Positions 1 through 38,311 of a DNA stretch of 40,935 nt are shown here, in pieces. The stretch covers positions 1-40,935 of the forward strand of contig JBNAWJ010000023.1 of the NCBI GenBank assembly GCA_049699795.1. Direction: 5' to 3'. A program made the position numbers and the translations under genes. The first letter of the stretch is position 1. Each line of letters starts with the position of its first letter. Origin of the DNA: Nitrososphaerales archaeon (lineage in GTDB: Archaea; Thermoproteota; Nitrososphaeria; Nitrososphaerales; JACAEJ01). Below the pieces are notes generated by a model. The model searched no databases, was not told where the DNA came from, and saw only the letters and a list, made by a program, of their open reading frames with translations.

Positions 1-52
1 GGCGAAAATCGGAACATAGCGTACGAAAAGTCGGAATTAAGCCACAAAGCAA
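1..52 (-). repeat. Copy A of the dispersed intergenic hairpin/TIR element, truncated by the window edge and inverted relative to copy B
   Basis: nt 1-51 are the exact reverse complement (51/51) of 23609-23659. It ends in AATTAAGCCACAAAGCAA, the terminal motif also seen at 23732-23749 and, with one substitution, at 38278-38299. Confidence 0.85.
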
Positions 53-133
53 TAAATATCTTAAAAGATGCAAAAATTAGCGTTTTGGTCTATGATTTAG
101 TGCATGTTCATCCTTATGCTTGTAATTTGACTT

Positions 134-505
134 TTAGCCTTTGGTTTCTCTAACAAATTCGTCAAAAACGGATTTTACTCTTTCAGTCGCTAACCCGCTT
201 CCTTCAACTCCCTGCTCTGTTACCTTTATCTTGTCCATGACAATTATGGATCTTATATCCTCTCTTAACTTGACCAAACCTGGGAAGACTTTGTTCAGTC
301 TATCAGCAAGAGCTTTCAGATCGAAGGGCTTCTCTACTAACCTTATCTCTTTTATGAAATCGCTGTTAAGGACCATTTTGTAGATTTTATCGCCAGCCCC
401 TAATACATTGTCCAGTATGATGTTAAGCTTCTCATCTATACCAACTAGATCCCCCTCATATATTCTGCCTTCAGACGTCTCTACAGCGACCTTTCTTCCT
501 ATCAT
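134..505 (-). CDS. Sm-like (LSm) archaeal protein with a C-terminal extension of about 55 aa
   Basis: The N-terminal part (VAVETSEGRIYEGDLVGIDEKLNIILDNV ... IKEIRLVE) fits the Sm1/Sm2 pattern. The ORF is intact at 123 aa. Confidence 0.7.
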   Translation of the reverse strand: MIGRKVAVETSEGRIYEGDLVGIDEKLNIILDNVLGAGDKIYKMVLNSDFIKEIRLVEKPFDLKALADRLNKVFPGLVKLREDIRSIIVMDKIKVTEQGVEGSGLATERVKSVFDEFVRETKG

Positions 506-710
506 TGCAACAAGCTCTTCATTGAACCTCTTGTATGCTATGGATGACAGTTTGCTCCCCCTTTTTGTTATAATTTATGTAAATAAAAACTATATGGAAG
601 AAGTTAGTAGTATTACAAAAACAGGATTTGTTATAACAAAGATGACTCGAATCAAAAAGCATACTTATCTTGCTAAAATAGTCGAAAACATAGAATTAAA
701 TCGATCGGGA

Positions 711-1286
711 CTATTCGAAGAATCGACCTAATTCCCCAGCCTTTTCAAAAAGGCTGAGCCAATCCACAAATCCTACTCTCTTTGGATACTCTCCCTTCAT
801 CACTTTGATGATTTCTTCAGCAACATCTTTCGCATCCCTACCAGTGGTATCGAACTCAGCCACTTTATCCTTACCAAATTTCTTCAAAGCTTCATAGGCA
901 CATACTCCTAATATCTCTGATGCAACGTTGTTCTTGATCTTCTCAACACTGTAGTTCCTTAATTTAAACCTCCTCTCAAGCTCAAAGGGTGAACACCTTA
1001 ATATAGCGACAAACCTTATTTCTCTTTTAGAAAAGATGGATGGCAACAGGTGTCCTGCCACAACTACCTTTTTCCCTTCCATAGCTTTTCTTGCATATTT
1101 TCTCAATAAATTTAAGTCTGCGATGAATCCGTGCTCATCCTCACCTATTATAGCATTCTTCTCTATAGCGATTTGATTCAAGTCCAAAAAATCCCAATCC
1201 AGTAGTTTAGCTATTAGTCTACCAACAGTCTTCTTTCCTGTTCCAGGGTTGCCTGCTATGCCTATTACATCTTGGGAATCTTTCAT
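711..1286 (-). CDS. fap7: Fap7/adenylate kinase 6-type NTPase (small-subunit rRNA maturation factor)
   Basis: P-loop GNPGTGKKT, and the C-terminal RVGFVDW motif typical of archaeal Fap7. Length 191 aa. Confidence 0.8.
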   Translation of the reverse strand: MKDSQDVIGIAGNPGTGKKTVGRLIAKLLDWDFLDLNQIAIEKNAIIGEDEHGFIADLNLLRKYARKAMEGKKVVVAGHLLPSIFSKREIRFVAILRCSPFELERRFKLRNYSVEKIKNNVASEILGVCAYEALKKFGKDKVAEFDTTGRDAKDVAEEIIKVMKGEYPKRVGFVDWLSLFEKAGELGRFFE

Positions 1287-1293
1287 CTATAAA

Positions 1294-1464
1294 TCATTCA
1301 GGGTACTGAGCTTGAACTTTCATCGGCGTGAACTCTATGACCAATGCTTGACCACATTTATTGCATCTTGCTTGAAGGTAAATGATATGAGGAGAGGAGC
1401 CTTTAGTGTTCAAGTCTTGGTTTATGGTTATCTTCTCATTTTTGCAAACAGGGCAGGCCAACAT
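1294..1464 (-). CDS. Small C4 zinc-ribbon protein, Elf1-like (absent from the supplied ORF track, 56 aa)
   Basis: My translation: MLACPVCKNEKITINQDLNTKGSSPHIIYLQARCNKCGQALVIEFTPMKVQAQYPE. The CPxCxxEK ... CxxCGQ pattern resembles Elf1. It lies 7 nt upstream of fap7 on the same strand. Confidence 0.45.
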   Translation of the reverse strand: MLACPVCKNEKITINQDLNTKGSSPHIIYLQARCNKCGQALVIEFTPMKVQAQYPE

Positions 1465-1532
1465 GGCAGATCATAACCCATTTAATTTTGGAAGATGTAA
1501 ACTTTTCGTTAAAGGTATCATGATATAAGTTT

Positions 1533-2630
1533 TCATTTAATCTCCTCTCCAAGCTCCTTAGCCAATTCCAAAAGAAGCTTTCTTTGCTTTTCTGTCAAGT
1601 TCGTTGGAGTTTTTACTGTCACTCTGACCAATTCATCCCCTCTACCAAAGCCTCTTATTTTTGGCATCCCTTTACCTTTAAGCCTGAATATAGTTCCACT
1701 CTGAGTACCTGGAGGTATTCTGAGTTTAGCTCTCCCATCTATGGATGGTACTTCTATCTCTGAGCCTAGTGCTGCTTGAGTGAAACCTATCTGAGCATCG
1801 TAGAATAAATCATCGCCATCTCTTTTAAGGGCCTTGTGAGGTTTGACAGTTACGACTACGTATAAATCTCCAGGCTTTGCTCCTTCAACGCTTGCTTCAC
1901 CCTCTCCTCTTAGCCTTAGACTATAGCCTGTATCAACACCAGCAGGAACATCTATTCTTATCTTTCTGTAACGCTTGACTATTCCACTACCATGGCATTC
2001 TTTGCATGGATTCTCTATTACTGCTTTTCTACCATTACATTTATCACAAGTCGTTATCTGAACGAACCTTGTAAAGCCTGATGTGCGGGCATATTGTATT
2101 TGACCTGTGCCATGGCACTTAGGGCAAGTTTTAGGCTCTGTCCCTGGTCTTGCCCCTGTTCCTTTACATACATCACATCTTTCATTGCGGGGAACTTCTA
2201 TCTCAGTCTTTACACCTTTAAATGCGTCTTCTAAACTTATTTCAAGATCGTATCTTAAATCGTATCCTCTCTCAGAAGCATGTTCACGCCTTCCAAAGAA
2301 CATATCGAATATACTGCCGAAGCCGCCAAAACCAAAGCCTAAATCTCTAAAAATTTCATCGAAATCAACGCCTCTGAATATGTCCTCCCTTGTGTACCTG
2401 CCGCCTATACCCTCATGACCGAACATATCATATTGCCTTCTCTTCTCCTCGTCTGACAGAACAGCGTAAGCCTCTGAAATTTCCTTGAACTTTTCTTCAG
2501 CATCAGGAGATTTATTCCTGTCTGGATGATACTGTAAAGCTAGTTTGCGATAGGCATTTTTTATCTCTTCTTGTGTAGCATTTCTTGGTACCCCTAAGAC
2601 TTCATAGTAGTCCTTTTTATTGCTATACAT
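1533..2630 (-). CDS. dnaJ: Chaperone DnaJ (type I Hsp40)
   Basis: J domain with HPD (YHPDRN), a G/F-rich linker and four CxxCxGxG zinc-finger repeats. Length 365 aa. Confidence 0.95.
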
Positions 2631-2658
2631 AAGAAATCAACTTTAAGGCAAATCGAAT

Positions 2659-4533
2659 TTACTTCTTATCATCCACTACTTCATAGTCAGCATCTATTAC
2701 TTTATCCTTCTTTTCCTCCTTTTTTTGCTCAGTTCCTTGCCCTTGCTTTTGAGCTTGCTGGGCTGTTTGCTGATATACTGCAGCCCCTATCTCTTGCAAA
2801 ATTTTTGATAATTGTTCATTCTTCGCCTTTATCTTATCTACATCTTTTCCACTGAGGGCATCTTTCAATTCGTTGATGGCTTTGTCTATCCTTTCGATTT
2901 GATCTTGACTGAGCTTTTCTTTAAGTTCAGACTTTGTCTTATCTGCTGTATAAATCAAGTTATCAGCAAAGTTGCGAATTTCAGCCTCCTCTCTCTTCTT
3001 CCTATCTTGCTCAGCAAACTTTTCAGCCTCGTCCACCATACGTTTTATTTCATCTTGTGACAGTTTCTTAGATGCTGTTATGGTTATCTTCTGCTCCTTC
3101 CCTGTAGCCATGTCCTTTGCTGTGACGTTCAATATCCCATTCACATCTATATCAAAAGTAACTTCTATTTGGGGGACTCCTCTTGGTGCTGGTGGGATCC
3201 CTGTCAAGTTGAACATCCCTAAGGATACGTTATCACTAGCCATAGGCCTTTCTCCTTGTAGAACATGAATAGTAACTGTAGTCTGAAAATCTGCAGCAGT
3301 TGTGAAGATCTGGCTTCTTCTTGTGGGTATTGTAGTGTTACGCTCAATTATCTTTGTGAATATGCCTCCAAGAGTTTCTACGCCCAAAGATAAAGGTGTG
3401 ACATCGAGTAGGAGGATATCCTTAACCTCACCAGCTATAATAGCACCTTGAATAGCTGCTCCTATTGCTACACACTCCATAGGGTCTACTCCTACTTCAG
3501 GGGGTTTACCAAGAACTTCTTCAATGAACTTTCTCACTAGAGGCATCCTTGTCTGTCCTCCTATCAGTATTACCTTATCGATATCTTTTGGAGTGAGCTT
3601 TGCATCTTCTAATACTCTTATTATAGTATCCTCTGTCCTTTTCACTATAGGTAAAGATAATTCTTCTAACTTCGCTCTAGTCAGAGTGTAGTGAAGATGC
3701 TTTGGGCCGTCTTTATCCATGGCAATGAAAGGTAAGTCTATATCTGTTGTGAGAAGAGTTGAAAGTTCTATCTTAGCCTTCTCACTAGCCTCTTTTAATC
3801 TAGCCATGGCAGTCTTATCGTTTCTCAAATCTATGCCTGTTTGCCTTCTGAATTCTTCGACAAGATGATTGACTATAGCGTAATCGATATCAGCTCCTCC
3901 AGTCTGAGTATCCCCACTAGTGGCTATTACTTGGAAGACTCCTCCACCAAAGTCCATGACAGTTACGTCGTGAGTGCCTCCGCCGAAGCTGAAAACCATT
4001 ATTTTCATTTCTTTTTCTAGCTTATCTAGACCATACGCCAAACAAGCCGCAGTGGGCTCATTTATTATCCTCACAACATCCAGTCCAGCTATGGTGCCAG
4101 CATCTTTCGTAGCTTGCCTCTGATTGTCGTTGAAATGAGCAGGAACAGTTATGACTGCTTTGCTGACAGTTCTCCCAAGAAAAGTCTCTGCGTCCTTTTT
4201 GATCTTCTGTAGTATAAAGGCTGAGATTTGCTGAGGAGTGAATTCTTTACCATACACACGAACTTTGTAGTCTGTCCCCATCTTCCTTTTTATTTCTAAT
4301 ATAGTACCTTCAGGATTCATCAAAGCTTGTCTTTTGGCAGGCTCGCCAACCAAAAGTTGACCATCCTTTGTGAACGCGACTACTGAAGGGAACATCTTTC
4401 CTGCTGCTGTAGGGCCTTCAGCGCTTGGTATGACTAAAGGCCTTCCTGCTTCCATTATGGCTGCTGCTGAATTCGTGGTTCCTAAATCTATCCCCAATAT
4501 CTTTTCCTTAGATTCTTCTTTAGAACTACTCAT
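2659..4533 (-). CDS. dnaK: Chaperone DnaK (Hsp70)
   Basis: [18 protein letters not shown]-like and EPTAA motifs. I prefer the ATG at 4533 (MSSSKE...), preceded by AAGGTGAG, over the GTG at 4551. This start overlaps the grpE stop. Confidence 0.95.
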
Positions 4534-5092
4534 GATTCTCACCTTTTTCACTTAAGCCTAAAGCGACCTTAACCATGCTCGGTCTTATCAACCTTCCATT
4601 TAAAAGATAACCCTTTCTTATCTCTTCTATTATTATATTGGTAGAATAATCTTTTGTCTGAACATGAGCAACAGCCTCATGTAAATTTGGGTCAAAGTTC
4701 TTTCCAACGGACTCTATCTCCTCTAACCCTTCTTTCTTAAGAATTTCTTTCAACTCTTTTAAGACCATCTCGATTCCTTCTACAAGAGATTCTTTGCTGT
4801 CTGTCTCTTTACTGGATTTGATAGCCCTCTCAAGATCATCGATAATGTTCAACAATTTTACTATTAACCTCTCATTGCCATACTTTACCAAATCGAGCAT
4901 CTCTCTATTCACCCTCTTCTGAAAATTTTCAAAATCTGCTTGCAGATACTTTAATTTATTCAAATAATCTTCTGCTCTATCGTGCTCCTCCTTTAAAGCC
5001 TTCCTTAATTCCTCTAACTCGTTCTCTAACGATTTTTCAGCAGGCTTGGCTTCTCTTACCGATTCACCCTCTGCCATAGATTCACCCATCAT
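4526..5092 (-). CDS. grpE: Nucleotide exchange factor GrpE
   Basis: Coiled-coil N-terminus, then a GrpE core ([12 protein letters not shown] ... HEAV). GGGGAGG lies 8 nt upstream of the ATG. Confidence 0.9.
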
Positions 5093-6000: not shown

Positions 6001-8382
6001 ATGGCAGTAGCAAACAGATTAGTAGTTGAATTTGAAAAGTTAGGCAAGGAAGATGTCCCTCTAGTGGGAGGTAAAAATGCCAATCTAGGAGAGATGTTAA
6101 AGGCAAGAATCCCAGTACCCCCTGGATTTGCCATAACTTCTTATGCTTACAAAAGATTTTTGGAAGAGACAGGTTTATCTGAAAAGATTTATGAAATGAT
6201 TAGAGAAAGCGTTAAGGAAAAGAATGATCCTAAGCAGTATGAAGAAGCCTCAAAGAAGATAAGGGCTGCCATAGAGTCAGAACAAATCCCTAAGGATATA
6301 GTCAAAGCCATAAAGGAAGCTTATAAAAAGTTATGTGACAATTTAGGCATTTTAGACGCTTACGTAGCTGTGCGCTCATCTGCTACAGCCGAGGATTTGC
6401 TCGATGCTTCTTTTGCAGGTCAACAGGAGACTTACCTAAATGTTAAGGGTTCCGATGATTTAGTCTACAATGTTAGAAGATGCTGGTCAAGTCTGTTCAC
6501 ACCAAGGGCGATATTTTACAGAGATGAGAAGGGTTTTCCTCATGAGAAGGTTTTGATAAGCGTTGGTGTTCAAAAAATGGTCAACGCAAAAGCAGCAGGA
6601 GTCATGTTCACCCTCCATCCTGTCACAGGGGATAGATCAAAGATTGTTATTGAATCTACGTGGGGCTTGGGAGAGAGTTTGGTATCTGGTTCAGTAATTC
6701 CTGACCGCTTCGTTATAGATAAAGATACAATGAAGATTGTAGAGCGTGAAATCGCCCATAAAACTGTATTTTACACAAGAGATGAAACAGGCAAGACTGT
6801 TCATCTTACAGTGCCTTCTGATAAGCAAGACGCACCTTCTCTCACAGATGAGGAAGTTCTTAAGTTAGCAGAGCTTGGCAAAAGGATAGAGGAGCATTAT
6901 CAAAAGCCTCAAGACATAGAGTTTGCCATAGATAAAGACTTACCTTTTCCAAAAAATATTTTCATAGTCCAATCTAGACCTGAGACTGTTTGGGGTATTA
7001 AGGCAGAAGCGCCTTTGGTTTCGGGAGAATCAGCGATTCAAGCCAAGACTATAGAGCGTGTAATCGCTCTCAAAGGATTGCCAGCAAGTCCTGGCTTTCA
7101 CATAGGTCGAGCAAAGGTAGCAATCACACCAGAAGAAGCTGCTAAACTCATGAAGCAAGGAGACATACTGGTAACAAGAATGACGAACCCAGACTGGGCG
7201 CCCTACATGAGGGTTGCTGGCGCCATAGTAACTGATGAAGGCGGAATGACCTGTCATGCAGCAATAGTGAGCAGAGAGCTTGGTATCCCTTGCATAGTGG
7301 GGAGCGGGAATGCTACAAAAGTTCTGGTCACTGGTAATTCTTATACAGTAGATGCTAGGGCCGGTGTTGTTTATGAGGGAACTATAGAGGAGTTTAGAAA
7401 GCCTGTTGGAAAGCCAGCTGTAGCAATGCAAGGTTTTGCTGAGCCATTTTTGGTTACAGCCACCAAGATTTACATGAATTTAGGAATTCCTGAGAAGATA
7501 GAAGACTATGTTCACCTTCCCTTCGATGGGATAGGTCTTATGAGAGTTGAATTTATCATGGCGACAGAAATAGGCGAGCATCCCCTCTACTTGATTGAAA
7601 GTCACCAAGAATCAAAGTTCATTGGGAGGATGGCAGAGGGAGTAGCGAAAGTAGCAAGAGCGATACAGCCAAGACCAGTCGTGGTTCGATTTTCAGACTT
7701 TAAGACAAACGAATATGCGCAGTTAAAAGGAGGAGAAAAGTATGAGTCAAGAGAGGACAATCCTATGCTAGGATGGAGAGGAGTCAGCAGATACGTTAGC
7801 CCTCAATATGAGAAGGCTTTCAGGCTTGAATGTAGAGCTATAAAGAAGTGCCGTGATGAATGGGGCTTGAGAAACGTTTGGGTCATGCTACCTTTTGTGC
7901 GCACAACTTGGGAAGTCGAGAAATGCCTTGCCATAATGAAAGAAGAAGGGTTAGAGAGGGGAAGAGACTTTAAAGTCTGGCTTATGGCTGAAGTTCCATC
8001 GATAGTGTTCATGGCTGATGAGTTTAGTAGGCTTTGTGACGGTTTTAGCATCGGTAGCAACGATCTAACTCAGCTAATTCTAGGGACTGATCGTGATAGC
8101 CAAATACTGCCTGCCATAGACAGTAGATACTTTGATGAGCGTGATCCGGCAGTGTTGAGAGCCATAGAGCATTTAATAAAAGTCGCTCATAATTCCAAGG
8201 TGACTGTCTCCATTTGTGGACAGGCTCCTTCAGTCTACGAAGACTTTACAGAGGCTATAGTAAGATTTGGTATTGATAGCGTAAGCGTTAACCCTGATGT
8301 CGTTGCTCAGACAAGGAAGCTTGTTGCAAGCGTTGAACAAAAGATACTGCTAGAACGCTTGAAAAAAATTCAAGAATCTTAG
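6001..8382 (+). CDS. ppsA: Phosphoenolpyruvate synthase (pyruvate, water dikinase)
   Basis: 793 aa. ATP-grasp N-domain (VGGKNANLGEM), phosphohistidine swivel (GGMTCHAAIVSRELGIPCIVG) and PEP-utilising C-domain (GSNDLTQ). Confidence 0.95.
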   Translation: MAVANRLVVEFEKLGKEDVPLVGGKNANLGEMLKARIPVPPGFAITSYAYKRFLEETGLSEKIYEMIRESVKEKNDPKQYEEASKKIRAAIESEQIPKDIVKAIKEAYKKLCDNLGILDAYVAVRSSATAEDLLDASFAGQQETYLNVKGSDDLVYNVRRCWSSLFTPRAIFYRDEKGFPHEKVLISVGVQKMVNAKAAGVMFTLHPVTGDRSKIVIESTWGLGESLVSGSVIPDRFVIDKDTMKIVEREIAHKTVFYTRDETGKTVHLTVPSDKQDAPSLTDEEVLKLAELGKRIEEHYQKPQDIEFAIDKDLPFPKNIFIVQSRPETVWGIKAEAPLVSGESAIQAKTIERVIALKGLPASPGFHIGRAKVAITPEEAAKLMKQGDILVTRMTNPDWAPYMRVAGAIVTDEGGMTCHAAIVSRELGIPCIVGSGNATKVLVTGNSYTVDARAGVVYEGTIEEFRKPVGKPAVAMQGFAEPFLVTATKIYMNLGIPEKIEDYVHLPFDGIGLMRVEFIMATEIGEHPLYLIESHQESKFIGRMAEGVAKVARAIQPRPVVVRFSDFKTNEYAQLKGGEKYESREDNPMLGWRGVSRYVSPQYEKAFRLECRAIKKCRDEWGLRNVWVMLPFVRTTWEVEKCLAIMKEEGLERGRDFKVWLMAEVPSIVFMADEFSRLCDGFSIGSNDLTQLILGTDRDSQILPAIDSRYFDERDPAVLRAIEHLIKVAHNSKVTVSICGQAPSVYEDFTEAIVRFGIDSVSVNPDVVAQTRKLVASVEQKILLERLKKIQES

Positions 8383-23316: not shown

Positions 23317-23383
23317 ATACTAATCCTGATATTTTTCCATAATACATTTTTAAGTAAGCGATTTTAAGTAAACTGTGATAGGA

Positions 23384-23593
23384 ATGCAACAGTATTGTGT
23401 AGAGTGTGGAGGACTGATGATATATGATATTTCTTCCAAGCATTACTCTTGCAAGAATTGTGGCTTATACATAACAAAAGAGCAGCTTATGGATTTAAAG
23501 GATAAGATTAGGAAGGAAGGAGAGGAGCGTAAGAAGAAGAGAAGAGAAGTAAGTGAGTATTTAGAATGGTGGCTATCAAAGAAGACTCGTTAA
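23384..23593 (+). CDS. Small zinc-ribbon protein with a Lys/Arg/Glu-rich C-terminal helix
   Basis: CVECGG ... CKNCG (C4) followed by KEGEERKKKRRE. I prefer the ATG at 23384 over the GTG at 23375. Confidence 0.5.
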   Translation: MQQYCVECGGLMIYDISSKHYSCKNCGLYITKEQLMDLKDKIRKEGEERKKKRREVSEYLEWWLSKKTR

Positions 23594-23608
23594 ATTAAAT
23601 ATTTTTTA

Positions 23609-23749
23609 TGCTTTGTGGCTTAATTCCGACTTTTCGTACGCTATGTTCCGATTTTCGCCCTCATGCGCGAACTATCTTTTCGAAACTCTTACTCTAAAGG
23701 ACTACAATGGAACAATAAATTCGAAATTAGTAATTAAGCCACAAAGCAA
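23609..23749 (+). repeat. Copy B (complete) of the intergenic hairpin/TIR element
   Basis: 17-bp perfect inverted termini: TGCTTTGTGGCTTAATT (23609-23625) and AATTAAGCCACAAAGCA (23732-23748). The first 51 nt are identical to the reverse complement of 1-51. It lies between convergent genes. Confidence 0.85.
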
Positions 23750-24177
23750 TTTTTTAAGAAATTTACCCCTTTTAGTAGCTTTCTTGTAGTATTTGTCATT
23801 TCTAAATCCTTCAACTCATCAGCCTTAAACCACTTAACTTGTGAGGCTTCCTTGCTACCTCTAACCTTCCCTTTTATGACTTTGACCATAAAGCCTACTA
23901 TCACATAGTGAAAGCGAACTCTACCTTTATCATCATACTCAATACTGTCAAAAACATCCACAATCTTGATTACATCTACCTTTAATCCCACCTCTTCTTC
24001 AACCTCACGCTTTATCGCATCATTTATTTTTTCACCAAGATTCACAAGCCCTCCTGGTAGAGACCATCTACCCTTGCCTGGTTCATGCTCCCTCTTTACT
24101 AAAAGAACAGAACCATTTTTTTCTATAAGAGCTCCAACTCCAACCATAGGATGCCTTGGATATTTTCTCTTCATCAT
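23734..24177 (-). CDS. Nudix hydrolase
   Basis: Nudix box GGLVNLGEKINDAIKREVEEEVGL. 147 aa. The last four codons and the stop lie inside the repeat terminus. Confidence 0.85.
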   Translation of the reverse strand: MMKRKYPRHPMVGVGALIEKNGSVLLVKREHEPGKGRWSLPGGLVNLGEKINDAIKREVEEEVGLKVDVIKIVDVFDSIEYDDKGRVRFHYVIVGFMVKVIKGKVRGSKEASQVKWFKADELKDLEMTNTTRKLLKGVNFLKNCFVA

Positions 24178-38081: not shown

Positions 38082-38175
38082 TTCGCATCTTTATTATGGA
38101 CGATAATTTGACCATATAAGTGTTAATTATTGCACTACAATTGTATTACAAAATTTATTTTTGAGTAATTATGAT

Positions 38176-38299
38176 AATTATTGCTTTATGGCTTAATCCT
38201 TGAATCTTGCTGTAATTATGTTAAGATTTTTCGGCTCAATCATGGATATGGCGCAAGAAATTAACATGAATTCTTCAATTAAGCCATAAAGCAATAATT
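38176..38299 (+). repeat. Copy C of the intergenic hairpin/TIR element (22-bp perfect inverted termini, 80-nt interior)
   Basis: AATTATTGCTTTATGGCTTAAT (38176-38197) and ATTAAGCCATAAAGCAATAATT (38278-38299). Same terminal motif as copies A and B, with a paired G>A / C>T change. Confidence 0.85.
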
Positions 38300-38311
38300 T
38301 ATCCATTGCTT

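Follow-up and report, generated by a model that had tools for sequence, protein, structure and literature searches.

We found that the 140-bp element lying between two convergent genes of the Nitrososphaerales contig analyzed here (the window, 40,935 nt) is very probably a non-coding, non-autonomous MITE that carries the 17-bp ends of a ~950-bp IS5-family IS. This element, copy B, is non-coding and falls under the ~500 bp expected of a MITE, has terminal repeats and a target duplication, has vacant counterpart sites in relatives, occurs in several copies, and shares its ends with an autonomous IS. It is an ordinary MITE and not a new kind of RNA. The first-pass annotation had considered a MITE, and that reading stands; it had also reasoned that termini identical to those of an IS would make the element an ordinary MITE, and IS5-family elements have these termini.

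Copy B occupies positions 23609 to 23748 of the window on the plus strand. The first-pass annotation had the start right and set the end at 23749, which made the element 141 bp rather than 140 bp. Both arms of the 17-bp inverted repeat that closes it were located, the left one, TGCTTTGTGGCTTAATT, at 23609-23625 and the right one, AATTAAGCCACAAAGCA, at 23732-23748 (both plus strand), and they are perfectly complementary. Across the window, perfect inverted 15-mers within 300 nt are found only at B and at a second element, copy C, and in 0 of 20 shuffles. The three TTTTCG repeats described earlier in the interior are present at 23631, 23652 and 23677, an enrichment over the 0.49 per kb seen in the window as a whole, counting both strands. 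The left end of B is 15 nt past the stop codon of a zinc-ribbon gene (23591-23593) and follows a T6 tract at 23602-23607. The single ORF in B is a mechanical 58-aa frame that exits the element. We found no transposase remnant in the interior of B or anywhere in the 41-kb window by tblastn with the transposases described below, and ARAGORN returned no tRNA on the window, as had been stated for the element. An integron attC-like site was considered and set aside, as an attC-type core is not visible by eye and the layout of the element is accounted for by its target duplication and the matching IS.

An 8-bp direct repeat, ATTTTTTA, flanks B at 23601-23608 and 23749-23756; it contains the T6 tract and had been overlooked. 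We compared this site with five contigs that encode the closest orthologue of the adjacent Nudix hydrolase (L125-L129). The filled site in the window reads ...AAAT ATTTTTTA (140 bp) ATTTTTTA AGAAATT..., and the vacant site in L125-L129 reads ...AAAT ATTTTTTA AGAAATT..., with one octamer and no element (in wider context, ...TCGTTAAATTAAAT ATTTTTTA AGAAATTTACC...). Two of these contigs, L125 and L127, align to the window at ~96% identity in two blocks (blastn), of 10.0 kb and 5.6 kb, on opposite sides of the site, and the L125 alignments end at 23608 and 23749, with 8 nt of the query common to both. Since the 8 bp are single in the vacant site and double in the window, a TA duplication of the IS630 type is ruled out. 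Comparing filled with vacant sites shows that the insertion of B is recent.

The insertion touches a protein-coding gene. The Nudix hydrolase gene (23734-24177, minus strand) converges with the zinc-ribbon gene (23375-23593, plus strand), and its last codon is hit by B. In L125-L129 the same two genes are convergent with stop codons 1 nt apart. The Nudix protein of the window has 147 aa and ends in ...KNCFVA; its orthologues, 92-96% identical in the protein search, have 144 aa and end in ...FLKNI. The codons for CFVA and the TAA stop come from the right repeat of B read on the minus strand, with the TAA within GGCTTAATT, and excising B and one octamer in silico predicts that the ancestral Nudix protein ended in ...KNI-stop. 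B has thus swapped the last Nudix codon and stop for CFVA-stop. No exact match to the zinc-ribbon protein of the window is on record. NCBI lists the orthologues of window proteins under Nitrososphaerales archaeon.

Synteny between the window and L125, the 96%-identical relative, ends at ~29384 of the window and ~4844 of L125. Beyond this break, L125 carries small ORFs and RNase_H_2 and HNH_3 genes (1-4700), and the difference may stem from an integrated element or from rearrangement.

Three copies of the element lie within the 41 kb of the window. Copy A (1-51, minus strand) is cut by the window start, and its 51 visible nt all match the left part of B (51/51); its flank, ATAAATAT at 52-59, is presumed to be the target duplication from the 8-bp rule. 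Copy C (38182-38293, plus strand) is a 112-bp variant subfamily, flanked by the target duplications ATAATTAT (38174-38181) and ATAATTTAT (38294-38302, with one T extra). Its terminal repeats, TGCTTTATGGCTTAAT, are perfect over 16 bp, carry a G>A change in both arms relative to B, and enclose a different interior. The terminus of B therefore recurs at 36-51 (minus strand) and at 38182-38197 and 38278-38293. The first-pass annotation was correct that these places share the terminus; it gave their extents as 1-52 and 38176-38299, which we revise to 1-51 and 38182-38293. The 22-bp repeat assigned to C at that stage is made up of the terminal repeat (16 bp) and 6 bp of the nearly palindromic duplication. 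Corroborating the results for B, copy C is missing in three MAG contigs (L136-L138) whose CDF transporter is 94% identical to that of the window: their spacer between the CDF and symporter genes is 107 nt vs 230 nt in the window, and it holds one copy of the sequence that matches the C flanks ATAATTAT and ATAATTTAT.

Contigs L001 and L002 of assembly ERZ3623746 end ~53 nt into copies A and B (592-643 in L001 and 6594-6646 in L002), and the window itself begins within copy A (1-51). Contig ends of this kind are typical of multi-copy repeats in short-read assembly, and the MITE is an assembly breakpoint in this lineage.

All three copies are in all-A/T octamers (ATAAATAT as the flank of A, ATTTTTTA, and ATAATTAT), and such octamers make up 1% of window positions at 38.6% G+C. 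The IS copies described below are likewise in A/T-rich targets. The first-pass annotation had placed every window copy at the 3' end of a gene, and we agree, as all lie just downstream of genes. We infer that all-A/T octamers are concentrated between genes and that a preference for A/T-rich targets, combined with selection against gene disruption, leads to copies at gene ends.

We scanned one genome per species for the 16-mer of the terminus. The hits were mostly chance bacterial matches plus a cluster in Thermoproteota archaea; several hundred chance matches were estimated in 596 Gb, and the Thermoproteota ones alone were judged meaningful. In L028, from a Caldarchaeales MAG, and at the ends of five contigs from the Nitrososphaeria MAG JARVJX01, a transposase gene begins after the same 17 bp. 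The five JARVJX01 contigs stop 96-127 nt inside the left end of the IS, which argues for multi-copy behavior of the IS. The L028 transposase, joined across one frameshift, matches the NCBIfam model transpos_IS5_2 (NF033579) at 201 bits (cut-off 140) and, in Pfam, DDE_Tnp_1 (PF01609) at 82.7 bits and DDE_Tnp_1_5 (PF13737) at 47 bits. A protein search with the transposase gave 845 homologues at E <= 1e-20, and among the matches listed most have 283-293 aa.

In the L028 IS itself (7101-8000), that frameshift splits the transposase near residue 75 (...RALHRLIPRL / DYSWLRR...). Its homologues have one unbroken frame of 283-293 aa, and the L028 gene is a probable pseudogene. In L028 the IS5-family element adjoins an IS6-family-like transposase gene (6493-7005, judged by eye), and the same holds in L119 (2437-2931, annotated DDE_Tnp_IS240). 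This adjacency in two unrelated contigs suggests IS clustering or nested insertions.

Six further contigs (L119-L124) were retrieved by transposase protein identity alone, independently of the terminus, and in all of them the terminus bounds the element on both sides. Each IS copy has one ORF of 279-293 aa. The IS in L119 spans 1453-2404 (952 bp, duplication TTACTTAA), that in L121-L124 spans 1453-2422 in L121 coordinates (970 bp, duplication GTTATCAA), and that in the Bathyarchaeota contig L120 spans 611-1551 (941 bp, duplication TAAATTT), so that the range is 941-970 bp with duplications of 8, 8 and 7 bp. The left repeat of B is identical to the left ends of the IS in L119, L121-L124, L028 and JARVJX01; L120 has one mismatch in the left repeat (T>C) and two in the right. 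Past the 17-bp repeats, the MITE and the sampled IS copies have background identity, and a simple internal-deletion derivative of these copies is ruled out on that ground. The hosts of IS with these ends are Caldarchaeales, Nitrososphaeria and Bathyarchaeota assemblies, all hot-spring archaea. A partner IS from the same sample was sought via P0005, and the locus fell in a different sample. The terminal family defined by TGCTTTGTGGCTTAATT has no named match in the resources searched.

The short element also occurs in other genomes. In Bathyarchaeota MAGs, the matches are MITEs of 138-150 bp, either complete or decayed (L011, L046, L113, L089 and L094), and across its full length B has 66-69% identity with those in L011, L113 and L089. 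A metagenome scan for two repeats separated by 80 to 110 nt returned six loci, counting both orientations and duplicate contigs, which represent two further distinct MITEs with perfect repeats: one of 133 bp (L130-L133) and one of 140 bp with a 9-bp duplication, TAAATAAAC (L134 and L135). The repeat-to-repeat pattern had 0 matches in viral contigs. Duplications are 7-9 bp across the family. Exact or nearly exact duplications flank B, L089 (AAATTTAT on both flanks), L134, L046 (7/8 matching) and L011, and those of some older copies have decayed (L113 and L132).

A solitary terminus, AATTAAACCACAAAGCA, lies ~310 nt upstream of the 140-bp metagenomic MITE (103-119 in L134 and 95-111 in L135) and may mark one end of a further element that is truncated. 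In the interiors, subterminal CTTTTCG/CTTTTCC and a central TCTTCGAA are partly conserved across MITE subfamilies of different archaeal classes (23631-23690 in the window; alignment columns 20-27 and 79-90), and both motifs are missing from the IS ends.

DDE transposases are known to bind both terminal repeats of an element and to move it by cut-and-paste chemistry. By analogy, we infer that the MITE is mobilized in trans by an IS5-family transposase and that the host genome has the partner IS. The transposase from a full-length IS copy elsewhere in the genome would bind both repeats, and the MITE would be inserted where an all-A/T octamer is cut with an 8-bp stagger, whose repair would produce the 8-bp duplication. 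Copy B would have been placed recently in this way between the two convergent genes, its right repeat supplying the CFVA-stop of the Nudix gene.

We weighed this reading against the structured RNA proposed earlier, in which a REP/ERIC-like 3' UTR hairpin, terminator or small RNA is kept for its function and dispersal is secondary. Both strands of B and C do form long hairpins in silico (-44 to -48 kcal/mol, z ~ -6), the window copies are all just downstream of genes, and T6 tracts flank B. However, the hairpin is the terminal repeat itself, the T6 tracts belong to the duplicated target outside the element, and the gene-end position would be accounted for by the all-A/T octamer targets. With Rfam, nothing in the whole window reached the gathering score; at a permissive E-value, only generic miRNA-hairpin models appeared at 23595-23757 and 38170-38310 (MIR5998, mir-784 and MIR161, which are plant or animal miRNA precursors), with 14-26 bits vs cut-offs of 90-180, and such matches are not meaningful in an archaeon, being generic long-hairpin noise. 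RNAalifold on eight family members retained the 16-pair terminal stem only; the covariation term was -0.01, and no helix was conserved in the interior. The lone change in both arms is the G>A of copy C, which is equally expected if one transposase recognizes both repeats. Moreover, close relatives have no element at the B and C sites; hence, the element is not required there. We consider a conserved RNA function very unlikely as the origin of the family, and the structured-RNA proposal is not upheld.

Two other transposon-based explanations do even less well. One is that each copy is a full-length IS that decayed in place and never moved as a small element. IS deletion derivatives are common and the match to the IS is confined to the termini; yet A equals B over all 51 visible nt, repeat included, the interior has no transposase remnant, and B is similar over its full length, at the 66-69% given above, to 138-141-bp elements of other archaeal lineages. 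Hence, the short form itself was copied, and in-place decay is extremely improbable. The other is an IS630/Tc1-mariner MITE with a TA duplication, which the first-pass annotation had suggested in its MITE reading on the ground that 4 of the 5 visible ends abut TA. Several ends do contact TA or AT, but these contacts are a by-product of the all-A/T target octamers. The vacant site shows that 8 bp rather than 2 were duplicated (7-9 in the family), and the transposase of the autonomous elements that share these termini is a DDE enzyme of the IS5 family, which leaves the IS630 explanation next to no chance.

Beyond the origin of the element lies the question of its later use. It is unlikely, though less so than the explanations above, that the MITE family has been recruited by its hosts and that, as a separate matter, IS and MITE were transferred between classes. 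Under recruitment, the hairpin, once inserted between genes in convergent or tandem order, could serve as an RNA 3' end, terminator or small-RNA precursor, and the in-frame TAA in the repeat could systematically remodel protein C-termini. Under transfer, the 66-69% similarity between the Nitrososphaeria-like and Bathyarchaeota elements could reflect recent movement of the IS/MITE between archaeal classes in hot springs.

For the MITE as we describe it, there are practical consequences. In uncultured Thermoproteota, at least three assemblies have contigs broken by the IS/MITE family, and since a gene C-terminus is changed by the MITE, annotators should mask the family. Filled and vacant sites are a strain-level marker of recent transposon activity. 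The results document an IS5-family IS and MITE that are active as a pair in lineages of the Nitrososphaeria, Caldarchaeales and Bathyarchaeia. They provide a clean example of a MITE that rewrites a protein C-terminus and open no new mechanism.

Compared with known systems, the B family has the anatomy of prokaryotic MITEs of DDE IS: members of 112-150 bp that are non-coding and intergenic, with perfect terminal repeats, target duplication, several copies, IS-matched termini and a long-hairpin fold. Unlike MITEs derived from DDE IS, it has an interior that bears no relation to the partner IS copies sampled. MITEs are well represented in archaea, as a census counted 18,091 in 1,015 of 8,220 genomes, ~89% of them intergenic (PMC11602168). 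Like the REP/BIME and ERIC sequences of bacteria, the elements are dispersed extragenic palindromes with possible hairpins downstream of genes. REPs are 20-40 nt long, are linked to Y1 (RAYT) transposases and have no target duplication; unlike REP/BIME and ERIC, B is 140 bp long and has an 8-bp duplication, DDE-IS termini and no conserved RNA structure. The partner, at 941-970 bp with one DDE transposase of ~290 aa and mostly 8-bp duplications, is like the IS5/ISH1 subgroup, for which a length of 900-1150 bp, 1 ORF and direct repeats of 8 bp are given (PMC6352166). It appears to fit the ISH1 subgroup and resembles ISH1/IS903 by size, ORF number and duplication length only. The nearest annotated plasmid elements, ISPam1 and ISAav2 of the bacterial IS5 family, are ~31% identical in amino acids, and their ends, GGCTTTGTTG and GGCGTTGTTG, have a GC.TTGT core in common with TGCTTTGTGG; the hosts here are Thermoproteota archaea. 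The B family is a new sequence family of MITEs, paired with an IS5-family element of uncultured Thermoproteota.
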